This document shows, piece after piece, positions 948-56,135 of a stretch of 64,000 nt of DNA. The stretch spans positions 45,600 through 109,599 of IMG/VR virus record IMGVR_UViG_3300020594_000001. One strand, written 5' to 3'. The stretch is from a virus. Taxonomy: Duplodnaviria; Heunggongvirae; Uroviricota; Caudoviricetes. The notes under the pieces are model-generated. The model was not told the DNA's origin. It ran no database searches and saw only the letters and a list, made by a program, of their open reading frames with translations. The stretch's first letter is position 1. Every line of letters begins with the position of its first letter. The position numbers and the translations under genes are program-made.

Positions 948-1145
948 TAGTGTTTTAACGAAAAAACTTCAAATCTAGGGGTTTTCACTGATACCGGGGC
1001 GCTTTGCTTGCCCGGGCATGCTTGACCCTACGGGGCGCGGTCAGGACGCGCTTTCCCGCCCCGCTGAGCGGTCTAGGATGGGCTCGCCCCGGTGCGGCCC
1101 GGTCGGGCGTGGCGGGGTGCTGCGCCTAAACCGATGACCAGGGTT

Positions 1146-1207
1146 GTCGCCGAACATGCTGACCAGCGAAATGGCCGAATACGTGACCGTTTGGCGAGCC
1201 GAACACA
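1146..1207. repeat. cluster A of GCCGAACA(C/T)(G/A) repeats, 3 copies
   Basis: GCCGAACATG (1149), GCCGAATACG (1174) and GCCGAACACA (1198) match a second cluster at 3279..3377. Confidence 0.55.
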
Positions 1208-1587
1208 AAATGCATTTGGGATCAGGTCGGCGCTAGGCTCATCAACTCGTGGGATAAAAAATAGGCCCGTCAGCGCTTCAGAACTTCAAAGCGCTTCGGG
1301 GCCATAAGGAGGCTCACATCATGCCAATGTGATCGGACAGACATCTTCATTCGGGGGGCAGTTTCTCTTCATGCCCCAGGAAGTTGGAGTCTTCAGCACT
1401 TACCGCTTGCGCCCTTCGCGTTTTGGGTCAGTAGCGCGGGGCAAGCAGCGAATCGAAGAAACCGAAGTATGTGCGCCCGGGGCAGGATGCGCCCTTTCCC
1501 GCCCGTGGCTGCGTTTAAATGGGTCGGTCCATACCCTCATGACCCTGGAGGGTCTAAAACGCGTGGCGGGCGGGGAAAATGCAGGGC

Positions 1588-1707
1588 CTAGCGAAGTTGG
1601 CGAGCGATGCGTTTGTTGTAGGCACGCTCGCGCAGCAACCGCTGCGATCGGATCATCGTCACCTCAGCGTGCTCTTGCATAATTTCGAATCGTTCAATGG
1701 TCGTCAT
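1588..1707 (-). CDS. small hypothetical protein, 39 aa (MTTIERFEIMQEHAEV...)
   Basis: ATG at 1705..1707 is preceded by a GGAAG Shine-Dalgarno. It falls below the 60-aa ORF-track cutoff. Confidence 0.35.
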   Translation of the reverse strand: MTTIERFEIMQEHAEVTMIRSQRLLRERAYNKRIARQLR

Positions 1708-2583: not shown

Positions 2584-2906
2584 GAGGCCACCCCTTGGTG
2601 AAAAGGCATCGGGGCGATAAACCCAATCTGGAACCCCACCCGCTCAGCATGCGTTAACGCAGCCCACTGCTGCGGACTCATCTGGAACGCTTCGCAAATT
2701 GCATCGACCAGATCAGCGTCACCCAACAACCGCCCGAACTCCAGGCAGATCAAATCACCCTCCACCAGCTTGCTGGGCCAGTAATCGTGCTTACGATCAA
2801 ATGCTAGGAGCTCTTCAACCGCTCGGTCATACGCGGGGTTGTTCAAGTCATAGTCTTTGGTGAAGGCGAGAACCCTCTGCGCGATCACCTTTCGTTGTGC
2901 TTGCAT
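2571..2906 (-). CDS. hypothetical protein, 111 aa
   Basis: Start at 2906 is preceded by the conserved leader ...CACACAAGGTAAACATCATG. Confidence 0.55.
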   Translation of the reverse strand: MQAQRKVIAQRVLAFTKDYDLNNPAYDRAVEELLAFDRKHDYWPSKLVEGDLICLEFGRLLGDADLVDAICEAFQMSPQQWAALTHAERVGFQIGFIAPMPFHQGVASCKT

Positions 2907-2966
2907 GATGTTTACCTTGTGTGCTGTCGTTATGAGGTGTCATCATGAGCGCCCAAAAGAGGCACT

Positions 2967-3097
2967 TTTCCCACTTTCGTTTCTTTACCCCCGGTTTTTC
3001 GGATACTTTTCTAAAAAATTTCCCACTTGAAGCGCCTAAATCCGATAGATATTGGGCGATCTTTCCCACTTTGCTAGGCGCGCAAAACCCACTTTTG
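2967..3097. repeat. four direct iteron-like repeats TTTCCCACTT(T/G)
   Basis: Copies at 2967, 3018, 3062 and 3086 lie inside a 1.1-kb non-coding region. Confidence 0.6.
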
Positions 3098-3278
3098 GGG
3101 CTAAAACGGGGTTTTCGGGGTGTAGGCGGGTCAAACCGAGGGGGGTTCGATTGCCTAAAGAGGGAGATAGGCCCGAGCACCAGGACAGGACGCCCAGCCC
3201 GTTAGGCAGTCTCTGGCGGTTGATACGCCTACACCTCTATACACGCGCAAAGGGGGCCTAATCGCTTACCAGGGATCT

Positions 3279-3377
3279 GGCCGAACACGTAGGCTGGGGG
3301 TGAGCCGAACATGAAAAAGGCTTATGGGCATTGGGGAAGGCGAGCCTTTCTATATACGGAAAGCTGGCCGAACACGA
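3279..3377. repeat. cluster B of GCCGAACA(C/T)G repeats, 3 copies
   Basis: GGCCGAACACG (3279), GAGCCGAACATG (3302) and GGCCGAACACG (3367). Confidence 0.55.
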
Positions 3378-4000
3378 AAGGAACTGGGCGCTAGGACGGC
3401 TTAGGCACGTTGACGTTTAAAGGCTTAGGAAGCGGAAAAATCTCTTATACGTCCGGTTATTGTTGTCATACGTCTGGTCCTATATCCGGTTATGTGGTTG
3501 CTTGTATATTCGGTTTATATGGTGTGTTTAAGCATCCTCTGTTTGTGTTGTTGATGAACCTCTCTATGGATTCCTTTCTCTATTCATTAACCGTCTCTTC
3601 TTTCTATCTGTTGTAGCTGTCGATATTGTTGTTGCTGGTCTTATCCGCACACTTTCTCTTTTCGTCATACGTTCTTTTTGGATTCGAGCTCGCCTGGTCA
3701 GTCTCTGTCTTCTCTTTCCCTCACGTCGAAATAGATTCGTTTTGCTTTGGTTGCTTTGCTTGAATCGCGCTTGCTTGCGCTTTTGGCGATCGACCTATGC
3801 CAGGGTATCGGTTTTGCTGAAAATCGCTTGTAGCGCGTTTAATCGGTTCTCTCGATACAATCGCGGGCGAAATTGCGGGGTTGCCTATGCTTGAAAAACC
3901 CCTTTAAAATCAATAGCTTACAATACGAGATTAACCCTTGCAAAAAAGACCCTTAAAATCAATGGGTTACGAGGGGTTTTCCTATAGGCTTTGCGGGCAT

Positions 4001-4030
4001 AAAAAAGACCCCACCTGTGAGGGGGTGGGG
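4001..4030 (-). terminator. rho-independent terminator for minus-strand transcription
   Basis: On the minus strand the hairpin CCCCACCC..GGGTGGGG is followed by TCTTTTTTAT. It closes the tmRNA-containing transcription unit. Confidence 0.6.
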
Positions 4031-4227
4031 CCGTGAAGAGTCTGTTTCCAGACTTAGGTAAACACCGATGCAAAGCGGTGTCTGGGTGAGGATAGCACAG
4101 CAGCTTTCGCTATAGGCTGATGGTTGCGCAAGGGCCTAGGGTTCCCTTCCGTTGTTCGGTCCCGCATAGTAGCCCGGGCGGGTTTGCAGCCCTTTGTCCC
4201 GGCGTTGCTTTCTGCTAAGAGGCAACC

Positions 4228-4314
4228 ATCATGTCTGCCAACGAGAAGGAATCGAACCTTCGCCTTCGACCTCGCGAGTCGTTGCTCTACCAAACGCGCA
4301 TCGTTGGCAGACAT
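4228..4314 (-). other. tRNA-like element, a degenerate cloverleaf with anticodon GCG (Arg-like), enclosed in a 16-bp inverted repeat
   Basis: On the minus strand: acceptor GCCAACG/CGTTGGC, D-arm GCGC-GTTTGGTA-GAGC, anticodon loop TCGCGAG, T-arm GAAGG-TTCGATT-CCTTC. Defects are C at position 33, one extra nt before the 3' acceptor strand, and no encoded CCA. The stem is extended by ATCATGTCT/AGACATGAT. Confidence 0.4.
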
Positions 4315-4595
4315 GATGATCCTGGTCTTTCTCTTCGCCAGGGCAGAAGCTGATGGTGTCGCACGCTCTACATCAGGGAGGGCCTACGCCATCACCCGGT
4401 ATCGGTCCAACCGCCAGCGGTCGGTGCGAAACTCCGTCAGGTTTTCACCTTCACCATCATGAAAAAGAGCGGTCCTCACCCTTGCACGTCTGGCGCACGT
4501 CCGGCCTTTCGTAATACTCGCCAGCAGGGTTGATACGGTTTTGAACGGGCCGCGCTCTTTCATGATGGCCCCGGGCATTCCCGGGGAACCTTTAC

Positions 4596-4959: not shown

Positions 4960-5220
4960 TCATGCGCCCGCAGATGAGGATGCGACATCGCGCAACAGCG
5001 CCTTGAATTGCTCTTCAGACAGAGGCTCTCCCGACAGCTCGCCCGGCTCAATGGTTGAATCCATGTAAGACCATCCGTTCCACCAGTCAGCGACATACCA
5101 TTTCGTTCCATCGCCGGGAACCGACCTGTCTAGCTTCACGAGCTCGCCATGCACGTTGCGGAAGATCATGCCCTCTTCGAGCTCGTATCGGCGCTCATAC
5201 CAGTCAATTTCCTTGCTCAT
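4960..5220 (-). CDS. hypothetical protein, 86 aa
   Basis: A strong AGGGGGAA Shine-Dalgarno lies immediately 3' of the tmRNA coding piece. Confidence 0.5.
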   Translation of the reverse strand: MSKEIDWYERRYELEEGMIFRNVHGELVKLDRSVPGDGTKWYVADWWNGWSYMDSTIEPGELSGEPLSEEQFKALLRDVASSSAGA

Positions 5221-5221
5221 G

Positions 5222-5662
5222 TGCTTCCCCCTACGTTGCGCTTCAATGATGGCCCCCGGCTTCTGTTGCCACCTGCCGGGGAAGGCCGTTACCGCTTAAG
5301 CAGCGGCACGGATGTAGTCGTCGTTGGCGTCTACAAGTTTTGCTTGGTTTATACGGCTCCGCTTGCCGAGTAGTTCGATTCGCTTCAGTATGTCTGTCGA
5401 AACCATGTCAGCCCCATCAGGAATTCCCTCGCCACTTTCGTCGGAGCAACCCGACTACTTGCTTCACTCACCAGTCCGTCGTTATGCGCACTTACGATAG
5501 GACTCGTGGGCCGTCTTGCCCCTCTATGGGCAGTCACGGAGGGAATTCCTGGTGGAGCTGGCGGGAGTCGAACCCGCGTCCAGACACCATTCACTGCACG
5601 TCTCGCGCCCCCCTCCGGCTAGAGGAAGTCGCACACTACCATCATCGAAGCGGGCCGGGCTT
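5222..5662 (-). ncRNA. ssrA: circularly permuted two-piece tmRNA gene: acceptor piece about 5550..5662, intervening hairpin 5416..5547, coding piece about 5222..5415
   Basis: The minus strand reads ...GGACGCGGGTTCGACTCCCGCCAGCTCCACCA (T-arm, acceptor 3' strand, CCA), ending at 5550. The tRNA-like 5' end GGGGCTGACATGGTTTCGACAG starts at 5415, after the CCA. A tag frame GCC AAC GAC GAC TAC ATC CGT GCC GCT GCT TAA (ANDDYIRAAA) lies at 5296..5328. A 14-bp complement links the coding-piece 3' end to the acceptor-piece 5' end. Confidence 0.7.
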
Positions 5663-6536: not shown

Positions 6537-6839
6537 ATGCCCAGATGCACTCTACAAACCTCCCACTCGTTCGGCCAACCCCGCATAGCGTGGTCTGCCC
6601 CGGTCGAGGTGCCTATCAAGCTGTCGACGCGAGAGCACGATAGGCTCAAGCGCGTCGTGTCATACCTGCATGTTCCCTACCAGGGCGACGGCAACCTAGA
6701 CGCCAGCCAGAAAATCGCTGCGCTGTATGAGCCTTACGTGCTTGCGTTCAACTCTGACAAAAGCATCGTCTTTGGTGGGTTCGAGGAAATCACCGGCTCA
6801 CGCTTCTACCAAAGCTGGCTTGTGAAATGGCTCGACTAG
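6537..6839 (+). CDS. hypothetical protein, 100 aa, plus-strand, probably SOS-regulated
   Basis: One of very few plus-strand genes. A LexA box overlaps its promoter and RBS region. Confidence 0.5.
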   Translation: MPRCTLQTSHSFGQPRIAWSAPVEVPIKLSTREHDRLKRVVSYLHVPYQGDGNLDASQKIAALYEPYVLAFNSDKSIVFGGFEEITGSRFYQSWLVKWLD

Positions 6840-28167: not shown

Positions 28168-29367
28168 CTATGCCCCCTTCACGCAAAGAATCTGCTTCAG
28201 GACGTGAACCACTTCAACCAGGTCGCGCTGGTTTTCCATCACTACGTCGATGTCTTTGTAGCTACTGGGAATTTCATCCAGAACCGCATCATCTTTTCGG
28301 CACTCGACGCCACGCGTTTGCTCTTCGAGGTCAGCGACGCTGAAAAGCTTGCGTGCTTTACTGCGCGACATCTTCCGCCCTGCCCCGTGTGAACATGAGC
28401 AATACGAATCCAGATTGCCCTTTCCACGCACGATATAGCTCTTCTGGCCCATCGAACCAGGAATGATGCCCAGATCACCCTCACGAGCTCGAATCGCACC
28501 CTTGCGAGTCACCCAAAGGTTCTTGCCGAAGTGGTTTTCGCGTGCCACGTAGTTGTGATGGCAGTTGATCGCTTCCTGGGTAATGGTGAACTCAACGGGA
28601 ATGTGTCGTCGCAGGGCTGCGATTACCGCTACCATCATTTCAGCCCGATTTTCCAAGGCGTATGCTTGGGCCCACTCAACTGCCTCCATGTAATCGTTGA
28701 AGTCGTCGGTGTCTTCAGGAAGGTATGCCAAATCGCCATCAGGCAAGTGAATAAAGAACCGCTCCATCGTGCGCTTAGCCTTTGCGATGTAGTGGTTACC
28801 GATCATGTTGCCGATACCACGCGAGCCCGAGTGCAGCATGATCCAGACATCGTCATTCTCGTCAATGCAGAGCTCAACGAAGTGGTTGCCGCTACCCAGA
28901 GTGCCAAGCTGCGCGGTAGCTTTCTTCGCAGCTTTGTGGGCGCTTTCGCTGCCCCGCTCGCCGAAAACTTCCTGAACACTTGGAGGGACATCAAGTATCG
29001 TGGCTGGCCCCCTGCCCTGCTTGTGCGCGCCACCGGCACCCAGCGGCACGTCGCGCTCAATCTGATGACGAATGCTCACCAGTGAATCGGGCAGATCAGA
29101 CGCCTTCAGAGACAGGCGCACAGCGTTCATGCCGCAGCCGATGTCAACACCGACAGCGGCGGGGATAATTGCCTTATCAGTGGCAATAACCGAACCAATC
29201 GTCGAGCCCTTCCCTGCATGAACATCGGGCATCAACGCAACGCCATTGCCAGCGATGAACGGGAGCCGCGCGAGGTTCTTGGCTTGGTTCAGCGCTTCTT
29301 CCTCGATATCGTCGGTCCATACTTTAATGGGGCGAGGCAGGGTCTCGTCGTGAATCACTTTCATCAA
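28168..29367 (-). CDS. rtcB: RtcB-family RNA 3'-phosphate ligase
   Basis: Family motifs MPDVHAGKGSTIGSV, CHHNYV and SHGAGR; 399 aa. Confidence 0.8.
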   Translation of the reverse strand: MMKVIHDETLPRPIKVWTDDIEEEALNQAKNLARLPFIAGNGVALMPDVHAGKGSTIGSVIATDKAIIPAAVGVDIGCGMNAVRLSLKASDLPDSLVSIRHQIERDVPLGAGGAHKQGRGPATILDVPPSVQEVFGERGSESAHKAAKKATAQLGTLGSGNHFVELCIDENDDVWIMLHSGSRGIGNMIGNHYIAKAKRTMERFFIHLPDGDLAYLPEDTDDFNDYMEAVEWAQAYALENRAEMMVAVIAALRRHIPVEFTITQEAINCHHNYVARENHFGKNLWVTRKGAIRAREGDLGIIPGSMGQKSYIVRGKGNLDSYCSCSHGAGRKMSRSKARKLFSVADLEEQTRGVECRKDDAVLDEIPSSYKDIDVVMENQRDLVEVVHVLKQILCVKGA

Positions 29368-45491: not shown

Positions 45492-45820
45492 GTCTCAACA
45501 TCGAACATACCTATGTGACAATCGGATTTTGGAATGTTCAGCTTCTGTGCCAGTAGCTCATATGCCCGGCTGCGGGTGAATGCGCCCGTCTTCCAGAGTG
45601 GGTCGAACGCAGCATGCGCCCGCATCTTTGCACTTCGCAGAGCCCCGTTTGCCAGTCGACCCAAGGGCTTATCAGTGCCTTTATGGCAACCGACATACGC
45701 ATCGCACGGCGCGCACAGATAGAAAAGTTGCTCGAACAAGTCTGGACGATGCGGGTATATCTTGCGCCCCGTCACAAGGCTGCTTGGCCCCCTGCAGTAT
45801 GAGCACTGAACAATTCTCAT
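45437..45820 (-). CDS. zinc-finger protein, 127 aa
   Basis: Start trimmed to MRIVQCSYC. Cys clusters CSYC ... CAPC. Confidence 0.4.
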   Translation of the reverse strand: MRIVQCSYCRGPSSLVTGRKIYPHRPDLFEQLFYLCAPCDAYVGCHKGTDKPLGRLANGALRSAKMRAHAAFDPLWKTGAFTRSRAYELLAQKLNIPKSDCHIGMFDVETCRQVAMVAKTIWGSPLE

Positions 45821-52766: not shown

Positions 52767-55700
52767 TCAGTTGGTTAGTTCTGCGATTTGGGCGCAGGTT
52801 TGTTGAAGCAGCTTGATCTTGCTCGCGTCGAAGTAGATGGTGCTCGGATTCATTCCAAAGACGATGCTGGCGTCCAAGGCGGGATCGAAGATTGTCTTGC
52901 CCACTAACTCTGTGGGGTTACCCTTGGTCGACGGGGCAAAGTAGCGAATGGCATTACCACCCATGGCGACAATGACGGCGGGCTTGAGAATTTCAATTTC
53001 CCGAGCCAGATACTTTGAGCAACCATTGATTTGCTCTGTCGAAAGCACCTTCTGCTCTTTTGGTTTTACTGACTTCACCAGGGAAGTGTAGTAACCGTCG
53101 TTAGGACTGAGACCCGCGTCTTTGAGCGCCGCGCGAACCGCGTCACCAACGTCGCCCGACAGCATTTTTCCGTCTTGCGCTTCCTTCCAGTTGGGGGAGT
53201 CGAACACCATCATGAAGCGTGGCTTCTTACCCATGCTGGGCGTGGGGTGCTGCCCGCCAGACAACGAGCAACCGTCGCAAACACGCATTTCTCCGATGAT
53301 TTCTGCAATCTTCAGCTGAGCGATACGGTCGGCATTGAGCCCACGGTCCGCCTTCACTGCGTCAACGGTGTATCCCGGCATGAGTTCCAGGCGGTCTTTC
53401 AGTCGGTCAGGGTGCAGCGCAGGCAAGCCGTCGCCAAGCGATGCAAAAGCGCCCACCTTGCGTAGCACCTCTTTGTGGCGCACGTTGATTTTGCCCGCGA
53501 CGGTGCTCTTGGCGACCTCTTCAAACTGATCGAACGACTCGAAGGGTTTACCCTGGGCAGCGCGCACCTCAAGAATCTTCGCAGCCACGTTTACGCTGAT
53601 ACCCTTGATGGCCTGGAATGGCGCATAGAGTGTGCGTTCACCATCGATTGTGATTGTGTCGGACGACTTATTGATATCCGGTGGCAGCACGTCGATCCCG
53701 TGCGTCTTGGCGTCCATCATGATGGGCGCAAGCTTGTCGTCATCGTCGACCACCGACATAGACGCCGCATAGAACTCAGCTGGGTAATAGACCTTGAGCC
53801 ACATCATCTGATAGGAAATCAAGGTGTATGCGAACGCGTGGGACTTATTAAAGCAATACGCGGCAAAGCCCTCGATGTCGTTCCAAAGTGCCTGCGCATC
53901 AAGCTCACTCATGCCACTGGCGACTGCGCCATCGATGAACTGTTGGCCCATCGTTGCCATCTTGTCCTTGTCTTTCTTACCGATCGCTTTACGAAGCCCG
54001 TCAGCTTCTGCGCCGGTAAACCCGCAAAGGTCGACCGCGATTCGGGATACCTGCTCTTGGTAGACCGTAACCCCGAATGTTTCGCGCAGCGCGGGTTCGA
54101 CCAGCGGACTGATGTAGCTGGGCAGTTTCTTGCCTTGCTTAACTGCGATGTATTGATCCATCAGCCCCGCGTCGATTGGACCCGGACGAAACAGTGCTGT
54201 CGCGGCGGCGATATCCTCGAACGTCAGAGGCTCTAACACCGCCAAATCTTTCAGCAGCTTGCGCATGCCCGAGCCAGAAAACTGAAACACGCCCACCGTA
54301 TCGCCTCGACCAAATGCTTCAAGCACCTTACGATCGTCCAGCGGCAGCGCCAGCAGGTTGATCGTCTTATGATGGCGCTCTTTGATATAGCGACGGGCAT
54401 GCGCAAGCACGTCGAGCGTAGACAGACCCAGAATGTCCATCTTGACGAGGCCGAAGTCTTCAACCACGCTTTTATCCCAGTTCACCACCGGCAGCGCACC
54501 CTCTTGACGCTGCATCACCACCGCGCGGGTGTTGATGTCATCGTGCGCGACAATGACGCCCGCTGCGTGCTGCCCCAGGTTACGCATGTTCCCTTCGAGC
54601 GTCGTCGCATGGTTCCATATGACGGGATGCTCAGCCTTGAACTTTGCAATATCTGGCACGCTCGCCGCAGACTCTTCGAGCGGAAGCGAAACCCCGTGCT
54701 CCTTCTCCATTTGCTTGGAACACGAATATTCGTAGGGCTTCAGACCATGCACACGGGAGACGTCCCGAAGTGACGAAGCGGAGCCCAGGGTCGAATAGTT
54801 CGAAATGCCCGCGACTTTGGCGCGACCAAACCTGCCCACGATATACTCGACGACTTCGCCTCGTCGTGAGCTCATGAAGTCCATGTCCACGTCAGGCAGG
54901 TCGATACGGTCGGGATTGATGAAGCGTTCGAACAGAAGGCCAAACCGAATCGGGTCTAAGTCTGTAATGCCAAGCAGGTATGACACCAATGAGCCCGCAG
55001 CTGAACCGCGACCAGGGCCAACGATGACGTCTTGCGCTTTTGACCAACCGACAATCTCTTGAACAAGCAAGAAGTAGTTCGAGAACCCGAGGCGTCGCAG
55101 CACGCCAAGCTCATACGCCAAGCGCTCCTTATACCTCTGCATATCTTCGGGCGCGGGCTTGTGGCCCAGCACTTCACTACCAAAGCGTTTTACCCAGCCT
55201 TCTTTGCAGCGCTCTAGCAACGTCTTGAATGCGTCTTCAGCCATATGGGGCAGCGACGCAGGCATCTTCTCGAAGCGATAGAAGCACTGCTCGACAATCT
55301 GATCCATGGACGCGAAACTTTGCTTAACTTCATCGCCATTCATTCCGATACGGCGGGCGGTCGAAATCATTCGCGTCGCGAGCTCTTTGGGGTCATCGAA
55401 GCACCAATCCCGGGTAGCTGGCACAGGCAGCTGGGGAGAGCCCATGGTGTATGTTCCAGAGCTTGTGATGGCCCTGAGAACATCATGGCTTGCAGCTTGG
55501 TCGCTTGATGCATAAAAGCGCGGGTAGCCCGCAATCAGCGGTAGCCCACGACTGCGGGCGCATGCCAGCGCTTTGCGGTTGAGCGTGTCGAACAACATGC
55601 TCTGAACCGGCGTAATCTCGATATAGAGCGGGTGTTTCTCCGACAGCGCTTGGACGATTTCGCCTGCCTTGGGGTGATGAAACAGGCAGAATAGGTCACC

Positions 55701-56135
55701 CGTTGTGACAATCACGTCTTCAAGCGCCAGCACCTGTGAAAGCTCGGTGCGGGCATGGTAGTAAAACTGGTCAGCGCTGTTTGCCTTAGACAGCAAGCCC
55801 ATCAGCGACCGCAAACCCGTCTCGGTCTTTACGTAAACCTTGATTTGAAAAGAGTGGTTTCGAACCTCAACCGCGCCCTCTTTCTTCTTTTGCTGAGCGG
55901 TGGGCGGGCGATAAGTTGCGCTGTCATATACACGAAGCGTGCACCCAAGAACAGGGGTAATGTCGTGCTTCTTGCAAGCAGACGAGAATGCGGGCAAGCC
56001 CGATATCGTCATGGTGTCTGTGAGCGCGATCGATTTGAAGCCCAACTCTTTGGCGCGCTCAACCATCGGCACCACCTGCAAGATTGACTCCCCGACAGAG
56101 TGATCAGACCGAACAGACAGTGCATGTTGTAACAC
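52767..56135 (-). CDS. dnaE: DNA polymerase III alpha subunit (DnaE-type)
   Basis: N-terminal PHP domain and the palm region GPGRGSAAGSLVSYLLGITDLDPIRFGLLFERFINPDR; 1122 aa. Confidence 0.85.
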   Translation of the reverse strand: MLQHALSVRSDHSVGESILQVVPMVERAKELGFKSIALTDTMTISGLPAFSSACKKHDITPVLGCTLRVYDSATYRPPTAQQKKKEGAVEVRNHSFQIKVYVKTETGLRSLMGLLSKANSADQFYYHARTELSQVLALEDVIVTTGDLFCLFHHPKAGEIVQALSEKHPLYIEITPVQSMLFDTLNRKALACARSRGLPLIAGYPRFYASSDQAASHDVLRAITSSGTYTMGSPQLPVPATRDWCFDDPKELATRMISTARRIGMNGDEVKQSFASMDQIVEQCFYRFEKMPASLPHMAEDAFKTLLERCKEGWVKRFGSEVLGHKPAPEDMQRYKERLAYELGVLRRLGFSNYFLLVQEIVGWSKAQDVIVGPGRGSAAGSLVSYLLGITDLDPIRFGLLFERFINPDRIDLPDVDMDFMSSRRGEVVEYIVGRFGRAKVAGISNYSTLGSASSLRDVSRVHGLKPYEYSCSKQMEKEHGVSLPLEESAASVPDIAKFKAEHPVIWNHATTLEGNMRNLGQHAAGVIVAHDDINTRAVVMQRQEGALPVVNWDKSVVEDFGLVKMDILGLSTLDVLAHARRYIKERHHKTINLLALPLDDRKVLEAFGRGDTVGVFQFSGSGMRKLLKDLAVLEPLTFEDIAAATALFRPGPIDAGLMDQYIAVKQGKKLPSYISPLVEPALRETFGVTVYQEQVSRIAVDLCGFTGAEADGLRKAIGKKDKDKMATMGQQFIDGAVASGMSELDAQALWNDIEGFAAYCFNKSHAFAYTLISYQMMWLKVYYPAEFYAASMSVVDDDDKLAPIMMDAKTHGIDVLPPDINKSSDTITIDGERTLYAPFQAIKGISVNVAAKILEVRAAQGKPFESFDQFEEVAKSTVAGKINVRHKEVLRKVGAFASLGDGLPALHPDRLKDRLELMPGYTVDAVKADRGLNADRIAQLKIAEIIGEMRVCDGCSLSGGQHPTPSMGKKPRFMMVFDSPNWKEAQDGKMLSGDVGDAVRAALKDAGLSPNDGYYTSLVKSVKPKEQKVLSTEQINGCSKYLAREIEILKPAVIVAMGGNAIRYFAPSTKGNPTELVGKTIFDPALDASIVFGMNPSTIYFDASKIKLLQQTCAQIAELTN

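Follow-up and report, generated by a model that had tools for sequence, protein, structure and literature searches.

A GC-rich non-coding region of a large orphan phage, with a predicted folded minus-strand tail, an intrinsic terminator and repeated modules

Introduction

What does a large phage keep in a stretch of DNA that is rich in G and C, carries repeats and hairpins, and holds no credible gene over most of its length? The question is raised by positions 950–1700 of a 64,000-nt stretch of viral DNA (the window; positions 45,600–109,599 of the IMG/VR record IMGVR_UViG_3300020594_000001). The window encodes a DNA polymerase III alpha subunit with a fused uracil-DNA glycosylase (UDG) domain, a class Ia ribonucleotide reductase, RtcB and a CobT-like protein, and its source is a large lytic-type phage; the polymerase shares ~43% identity with its counterparts in Rhizobium RHEph10-like and Pseudomonas nickie-like phages (~112–120 kb). 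In a simple codon-usage gene call of the whole window, ~110 of 116 genes lie on the minus strand, both neighbors of the region among them, and the nearest plus-strand gene lies at 6609.

The explanation preferred here, tentatively and with confidence just short of even, is that the region is a lineage-specific non-coding regulatory spacer: a structured 3′ untranslated region (UTR) with its terminator, then a promoter-leader cassette. On the transcribed minus strand, the spacer would link two consecutive transcription units, the end of the first with the beginning of the second. The first unit would comprise a 39-aa open reading frame (ORF; 1707–1588), an untranslated tail of ~335 nt and an intrinsic terminator (1303–1254); the second, beginning after the terminator, would comprise three boxes (1206–1149), a diverged repeat module A (1130–1012), operator-like repeats with a σ70-like promoter (945–909) and a gene of 219 aa.

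Composition, Coding Status and Relatives

Positions 985–1587 contain 60.9% GC, against 54.5% for the window, and form its most GC-rich stretch of ~600 nt; only 0.1% of 603-nt windows (mean 54.5, standard deviation 2.6, maximum 61.2) reach this value. The preliminary description of this DNA was correct in calling the region GC-rich relative to its surroundings, and the region is compositionally foreign. In a codon-usage scan of 900–1575 no frame exceeds 0.04 per codon, compared with 0.16–0.33 in the neighboring genes; all ORFs of the region have negative codon scores and a non-genic distribution of GC over the three codon positions, with 0.59–0.67 at the second position as against 0.41 in real genes. 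The region is non-coding, as had been described, with no coding signal in any frame. The accompanying statement that no ORF could be trusted holds for 950–1587, where all six frames are non-coding; it does not extend to 1588–1707, where a probable minus-strand gene lies.

Decay or frameshifting of a protein-coding gene, the alternative which the preliminary description allowed, is scarcely credible as the origin of the region. Relatives of the phage do carry a gene at the equivalent position, and frame 0 of the plus strand is open from 1092 to 1682 but for a single TAA (1305–1307); however, long open frames are to be expected in sequence of 61% GC, and the translation of this one is Arg/Gly/Ala-rich with negative codon scores. 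The longest plus-strand ORF (117 aa) has no match at E ≤ 0.001 among 1.84 billion representative proteins, tblastn with the regulator proteins of the relatives detects no remnant of their gene in the window, and neither residual homology nor a coding signature of a pseudogene was found.

The relatives were recognized through the 219-aa protein, which has three diverged relatives in 5.8 billion clusters; contigs L004 and L005–L008 carry the gene at 75–82% amino-acid identity. All of these contigs align with the window across the 219-aa gene, and L006 and L007 also across the AT-rich interval 1875–1983, and none aligns across 950–1590. At the equivalent position they have a divergently oriented gene of 91–120 aa, in two versions that are 35% identical, and one version gives a sub-threshold match to the ribbon-helix-helix (RHH) family RHH_1 (E = 0.0048). 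Given its foreign composition and its location where relatives carry a regulator gene, the region is therefore read as a mosaic replacement. Identical copies are present on contigs of at least four public samples, so the region is no assembly artefact.

Searches for similar sequence elsewhere returned nothing of use. BLASTN of the region against phage records and plasmids and tblastn of the neighboring gene against phage records gave no match; the 111-aa and 78-aa upstream genes, used as queries, matched nothing beyond the phage itself; scans of viral and metagenome contigs for protein patterns yielded no further relatives, and a conserved 26-nt pattern from the AT-rich block had no match in viral contigs. 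A comparison with Rfam, one of the checks that the preliminary description had proposed, also came out negative: Rfam 15 has no match in the region at the gathering score, and a permissive cmscan of 850–2300 (E ≤ 10) gave only noise, the best match (E = 0.12) being a eukaryotic snoRNA that scores 22.5 bits where the cut-off is 60. The refuting outcome which that description named, neither an Rfam match nor covariation among homologues, is thus reached only weakly, since the related phages recovered lack the region altogether. At the gathering score the whole window contains a permuted transfer-messenger RNA (tmRNA) and two tRNA matches, all outside the region. Nothing in the region is assigned by Rfam to a riboswitch, GOLLD, ROOL, HEARO, OLE, group I or II intron, 6S or known small RNA. 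A large ornate RNA of the GOLLD, ROOL or HEARO class is further contradicted by the absence of the sequence from relatives and collections and by excess folding that extends over 338 nt only.

Minus-Strand Reading Frame, Predicted Folded Tail and Terminator

The minus-strand ORF at 1707–1588 (MTTIERFEIMQEHAEVTMIRSQRLLRERAYNKRIARQLR) has an AAGGAAG ribosome-binding site 7 nt upstream and a codon score of +9.0 (0.23 per codon), and is also called as a gene on the identical public contigs. It has no family match, and an exact-sequence look-up returns the identical contigs only; L006 has a small ORF at the matching position, to which BLASTP shows no similarity. The ORF is the probable coding part of a transcript whose tail fills the region.

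On the minus strand, RNA from 1587 to 1250 (338 nt) is more stable than any of 100 dinucleotide shuffles (z −4.06), and with the terminator excluded (1587–1306) the excess persists (z −3.22, 2 of 200 shuffles as stable); the plus strand gives z −1.64 and −1.39 over the same two intervals. Among 64 minus-strand windows of 338 nt, z has a mean of −0.84, a standard deviation of 1.03 and a minimum of −3.14, and the tail shows the most extreme excess folding of 13 non-coding stretches tested on both strands. Relative to this background the value is suggestive, not decisive. Minimum free energy (MFE) and centroid structures nearly coincide over the ~335-nt tail. The other part of the region, 950–1249, folds no better on the minus strand than its shuffles (z +0.2). 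The RNA structure and the several stable hairpins of the preliminary description are therefore borne out in 1250–1587, where excess structure is clear, on the minus strand, and not in 950–1249.

Two domains are predicted in the tail. Domain 1 (1587–1491) falls inside repeat module B and takes the form of a three-way junction; CCCGCCCG/CGGGCGGG close it, it contains a GACCC-UCCA-GGGUC hairpin, and its MFE and centroid structures agree. The module B core (1484–1580) has z −2.02 on the minus and −2.85 on the plus strand, so that domain 1 alone indicates no strand. Domain 2 (1490–1316) is an irregular rod of ~175 nt with a long hairpin at 1390–1460 and, as pointed out in the preliminary description, a GGGGCA/TGCCCC hairpin at 1355–1377 (z −2.8 and −2.5, respectively). 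A homology of domain 1 to a hairpin that follows the small ORF of L006 (shared UGAGGG and AUUAAACGC) was considered and rejected, the alignment score not rising above shuffles (96 of 500).

The tail ends in an intrinsic (Rho-independent) terminator at 1303–1254, whose stem GGCCC...AAGCGCUU/AAGCGCUG...GGGCC (1303–1264) is followed directly by UAUUUUUUAU (1263–1254). The stem-loop has a folding energy of −23.2 kcal/mol (z −3.9, 1 of 200 shuffles as stable), and the U-run is present on the minus strand only. A simple terminator scan missed it; at the sequence level it is an intrinsic terminator, with a GC-rich stem-loop and an immediate U-run, and it lies past the 39-aa ORF on the gene-bearing strand. 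Single-stranded CCUCCUUAU, immediately before the terminator, is the complement of a plus-strand Shine-Dalgarno sequence discussed below.

Intrinsic terminators preceded by long structured 3′ UTRs are familiar, and in enterobacteria small RNAs such as CpxQ, SroC and DapZ derive from 3′ UTRs. The minus-strand transcript would share with these a short coding region, a long folded tail, a GC-rich hairpin with a U-run, and the single-stranded stretch before the terminator. It differs in being the orphan sequence of one phage lineage, for which no processing site, Hfq-type motif or target was identified, and duplex energies with the conserved start sites of the phage are no better than background. 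The minus-strand sequence GCAUGAUGU...CCUU had been tried as an antisense seed against those start sites and was rejected, its duplexes (−18 to −22 kcal/mol) lying in the middle of the background (mean −19). Judged from its predicted fold, the tail is best classed among structured phage 3′ UTRs, as a new orphan member, or possibly among 3′-UTR small RNAs. It would probably stabilize and insulate the short transcript, and may be released as a small RNA of the 3′-UTR type. Beyond the terminator, and a minigene at the level of sequence, nothing in the region falls within the definition of a known family.

Repeat Modules A and B

The paired repeats CGCGCTTTCCCGCCC (1047–1061) and CGCCCTTTCCCGCCC (1490–1504), together with a second anchor, GCGTGGCGGG (1107–1116 and 1561–1570), sit in two collinear direct-repeat modules of ~120 nt, A (1012–1130) and B (1465–1591). 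Their local alignment score is 36.5, against 22.7 ± 3.6 for shuffles (4 of 500 as high), which makes the similarity moderately significant, and each is the best non-self match of the other among 3192 windows on both strands (42.3, next best 35.3). The preliminary description had reported this pair of repeats, which is real and part of the modules, and a second pair, GACCCTACGGGG (1024–1035) and GACCCTGGAGGG (1541–1552), which is also present, though not in collinear order with the others, and is read as a chance match of hairpin halves. The window has no third copy; a compact one seen by eye downstream of a box cluster at 3288 fell outside the top windows and was not significant. Module A, which on the minus strand starts at TAGGC after the last of the three boxes, shows no excess folding (z +0.1), and a common fold for A and B was rejected as weak, the consensus having only 13 pairs at −14 kcal/mol. 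No terminal inverted repeats or target-site duplications of a mobile element were seen on reading the ends.

Copies of the modules were also sought elsewhere. A strict anchor pattern found none in genome contigs; 57 matches in metagenome contigs and, with a loose pattern, 49 in genome contigs were obtained, and on inspection the matches in viral, metagenome and genome contigs proved to be chance occurrences confined to the anchors. The best match of a two-sequence nhmmer profile of the modules has E = 0.13.

The modules could act in nascent RNA as do the put elements of phage HK022 and the nut sites of lambda, being transcribed early and modifying RNA polymerase for read-through of terminators such as that at 1303–1254; by this analogy, which we consider quite improbable, the two copies would be antitermination sites. 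The arrangement has points in common with putL and putR, likewise two similar elements downstream of early promoters (PMC9378689): two related copies lie on the transcribed strand, A directly after the promoter-like box cluster and B ~160 nt upstream of the intrinsic terminator. However, the put RNAs are ~70 nt long with two defined stem-loops, whereas the modules are ~120 nt, share no two-stem fold, and have no sequence similarity to put, nut or anything else known. No boxA- or boxB-like motif was seen on reading the sequence of the modules, module A shows no excess folding, and no promoter is evident upstream of module B, within the 39-aa ORF.

In another explanation the region is essentially neutral mosaic filler: illegitimate recombination would have brought a GC-rich foreign fragment into regulatory DNA that is hypervariable. 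Function would then be limited to the terminator and to promoter and operator motifs that were already there, with none for the hairpins and repeats as such. This is rather unlikely. In its favor, the region is absent from all relatives found, in a highly mosaic neighborhood; its composition is atypical; half of it has no excess structure and its two modules have no shared fold; and phage, plasmid, viral, metagenome and genome collections hold no similar sequence. It sits less well with the excess folding of 1587–1306, which is strand-specific, does not depend on the terminator and exceeds that of every other non-coding gap tested, with modules A and B being collinear repeats on one strand, an arrangement unlikely to have been kept by chance, and with the identical sequence in contigs of several samples.

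Promoter-Like Boxes and Operator-Like Repeats

Between the terminator and module A, the spacer that we favor carries three tandem promoter-like boxes (1206–1131, minus strand), 24–25-nt copies of RTRTTCGGC-N10-GTCA in which RTRTTCGGC occupies 1206–1198, 1182–1174 and 1157–1149; the third copy continues into TTTAGGCGC. The box, GTGTTCGGC, recurs in non-coding DNA, at 3375–3280 of the window and also in L004 and L006, and elsewhere is usually followed by N10-TATAGAG and TAGGCC; the boxes at 1157 and 3288 have CCCTGGTmAkCG..TTAGGC in common. Clusters of 2–3 boxes with N10-TATAGAG and TAGGCC were located at 3280–3375 (minus strand) in the window, at 1213–1290 and 3606 in L004, and at 485–545 in L006, and T.TTCGGC is invariant over 13 instances. 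From its layout, which resembles that of an activator-box promoter, the box is a candidate for a phage-specific promoter or activator-site motif.

Middle promoters of phage T4 depend on an activator and carry a MotA box ~12 bp upstream of the −10 element. The present boxes resemble these in placing a conserved box of 9 bp 10 bp upstream of a TATAGAG-like element, and in recurring in non-coding regions; they differ in that the box sequence is unrelated, the copies stand in tandem clusters of 2–3, GTCA replaces TATA in the three copies of the region, and promoter activity is here a prediction. The three boxes at 1206–1149 may be inactive as promoters.

Direct repeats at regular spacing could also be sites in DNA, and the region could act as a protein-binding array, of origin-type iterons or of enhancer-like sites for a phage transcription factor, formed by the three boxes of 24–25 bp and flanking CCCGCC...GGGCGGG inverted repeats, beside the AT-rich block at 1740–2230. 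The AT-rich block is partly conserved in relatives (77% identity at 1875–1983), cumulative GC skew turns near 4200, and the module B stem is at least as stable on the plus strand as on the minus strand, in line with a symmetric DNA element. Such an array is nonetheless improbable: elsewhere a TATA-like element and TAGGCC come after the box, an arrangement that looks promoter-like and not origin-like; the strand asymmetry of folding favors a role at the RNA level for 1250–1587; and no replication initiator gene is adjacent.

Further along the proposed second unit, two 18-nt direct repeats AAAACGTTTGCATT (945–909, minus strand) overlap a candidate σ70-like promoter, TTGCAT (938–933) and TAAAAT (914–909) separated by 18 nt, with hexamers below the scan threshold. 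The layout recurs in L004, which has three copies of ACAATTGCAC with TTGCAC-N17-TAATAT. On this pattern, 909–945 is likely to be the operator and promoter of the 219-aa gene (190–849). The terminator would insulate that gene, which would be served by its own promoter and operator repeats, and the box cluster and the leader-like GC-rich module would precede them. A short block at 976–984 (plus strand), TAGGGGTTT, resembles the ribosome-binding region of the L006 divergent regulator, TATAGGGGTTTAAAAATG, and homology to the relatives is lost just to its right; any correspondence that this likeness suggests would be a weak one.

The surroundings recall divergent repressor modules of the RHH (CopG/Arc/Mnt) type. 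In the relatives the weakly RHH-like gene lies beside TGCA-containing direct repeats upstream of the gene homologous to that of 219 aa. Similar repeats and a similar promoter arrangement are retained in the window; here, however, the repressor gene is missing and GC-rich non-coding DNA stands in its place.

Plus-Strand Shine-Dalgarno Sequence and Mini-ORF

On the plus strand, the Shine-Dalgarno sequence AAGGAGG noted in the preliminary description is indeed present at 1306–1312, 8 nt before the mini-ORF ATG CCA ATG TGA at 1321–1332 (AAGGAGG-N8-ATGCCAATGTGA). AAGGAGG occurs twice per strand in the window, and by a rough estimate the chance probability of its co-occurrence with a mini-ORF is ~0.02, which makes the arrangement mildly unexpected. 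The start context ACATCATGC is that of a recurrent start site of the phage, CAAGGTAAACATCATGC, present at six minus-strand genes. A start cassette of 16–19 nt, (A)CAAGGTAAACAYCATGC, is near-identical at the six genes (window 120, 854, 2911, 9320, 13195 and 16683, minus strand) and at several genes of the distant relatives L004 and L006; this distribution suggests a shared translational or 5′-UTR control of a subset of genes.

Translation of the mini-ORF would make the region a structured plus-strand RNA encoding MPM, either a leader-peptide attenuator or a minigene of the lambda bar type; this is very improbable. For a minigene, the sequence itself qualifies: a strong Shine-Dalgarno sequence at functional spacing precedes a 3-codon ORF in phage non-coding DNA, in the start context that the phage prefers, with a low chance of co-occurrence, as in lambda bar and other minigenes of 2–8 codons, and the translation of short minigenes bearing a Shine-Dalgarno sequence, with effects on cells, is known (PMC2490762). 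The relatives, moreover, transcribe the plus strand at the equivalent position, for their divergent regulator gene. Here, however, the mini-ORF is antisense to essentially all transcription, a promoter scan found no plus-strand promoter-like site upstream of it, and plus-strand folding is not above background.

The riboswitch or attenuator with a leader peptide that the preliminary description had suggested is not supported. The excess fold belongs to the minus strand, to which the mini-ORF is antisense; the adjoining hairpin terminates the minus strand only; neither a plus-strand terminator, nor alternative hairpins, nor a plus-strand gene downstream to be regulated (nearest, 6609) was found; and three codons, with no run of regulatory codons, could not sense amino-acid supply as classical leader peptides do. 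On the minus strand 1306–1332 reads GGCAUGAUGUGAGCCUCCUU, just 5′ of the terminator, and the plus-strand Shine-Dalgarno sequence and 3-codon ORF most probably arise incidentally from the sequence of the minus strand.

Proposed Organization and Points Against It

Several observations weigh against a spacer built of a 3′ UTR, a terminator and a promoter-leader cassette. The z-score of the tail lies ~2.5–3 standard deviations beyond the genomic background, and the fold derives from the thermodynamics of a single sequence; no homologue in the collections searched carries the region, hence there is no support from covariation. Module B folds better on the plus strand, A and B have no convincing shared structure, the boxes at 1206–1149 carry GTCA in place of the expected TATA-like −10 element, the 39-aa ORF has no detectable conservation in the relatives, and the start and end positions of the transcripts are predictions from sequence.

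A bolder reading of the same features would see in minus-strand 1587–1250, possibly with the 39-aa ORF as a dual-function RNA, an undescribed structured regulatory RNA of phage, with the modules as cis-acting RNA elements that control termination or read-through and with control by RNA replacing the protein repressor of the relatives. This we regard as decidedly unlikely. If it were true, the substitution of RNA for a protein switch, at a site where the small repressor gene of the relatives is absent, would offer an instructive example of how modules are exchanged in the regulatory DNA of phages, and the region would matter more in general if the folded tail and the duplicated modules act as RNA. 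If the spacer is as proposed, the architecture, of terminator, promoter boxes and operator repeats, is ordinary for phage regulation and includes a GC-rich insert specific to the lineage, and in an orphan phage of ~110 kb the finding would be of use mainly for annotation. The GTGTTCGGC box and the CAAGGTAAACATCATGC start cassette offer testable handles on the organization of transcription and translation in a little-known group of phages.

Other Elements of the Window

Adjoining the region, the AT-rich block at 1740–2230 contains TATATATA repeats and three GGGTC repeats. Its identity to L006 and L007 (77% at 1875–1983) is above that of the neighboring coding gene, and a 41-nt core (1942–1982) is 93% identical to 13500–13540 of L004, where it has another position and the opposite orientation; by this conservation the block is probably a promoter or another cis element.

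Farther on, 2889–4383 comprises 1.5 kb without credible genes, with many short repeats (TTGATTTTAAGGG... and boxes) and a terminator at 4032–4007; 3701–4100 has z about −2.9 on both strands, and CTCTATATAGAGA palindromes abound in the homologous part of L004 (~900–1900). From position 1 the cumulative GC skew climbs as far as ~4200 and then falls to 8000, the end of the profiled stretch; in coarse windows over the whole sequence the skew trends downward too, and minus-strand genes lie on both sides of ~4000–4400. The turn there may reflect a replication-related switch or a module boundary.

Three RNA-like elements follow, all on the minus strand. A permuted (two-piece) tmRNA at 5205–5642 (Rfam tmRNA_permuted, 106 bits at 5296–5612; ARAGORN tag peptide ANDDYIRAAA) is flanked by complementary GATGATGG and CCATCATTG, and is ~88% identical to stretches of Bordetella phage PHB04 and Achromobacter phages Axy11 and JWDelta that are unannotated or annotated as "hypothetical protein"; this likeness points to a betaproteobacterial host. 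A tRNA-like element at 4228–4317 (Rfam tRNA, 36.6 bits at 4237–4307; no ARAGORN call and no CCA end) lies inside a 17-bp extension of the acceptor stem, ATCATGTCTGCCAACGA/TCGTTGGCAGACATGAT, and may be a processing substrate or a tRNA mimic. A hairpin of ~110 nt at 4454–4566, closed by ATCATGAAAGAGCGCGG/CCGCTCTTTTTCATGATGG, overlaps a weakly scoring ORF (4384–4578). ATCATG...CATGAT ends are common to this hairpin and to the flanks of the tRNA-like element and the tmRNA.

The RtcB RNA ligase gene lies at 28168–29367. The polymerase gene (52767–56135, minus strand) encodes the C-terminal UDG superfamily domain at residues 971–1101, and from full-length alignment this fusion appears to be common to the RHEph10-like and nickie-like phages.

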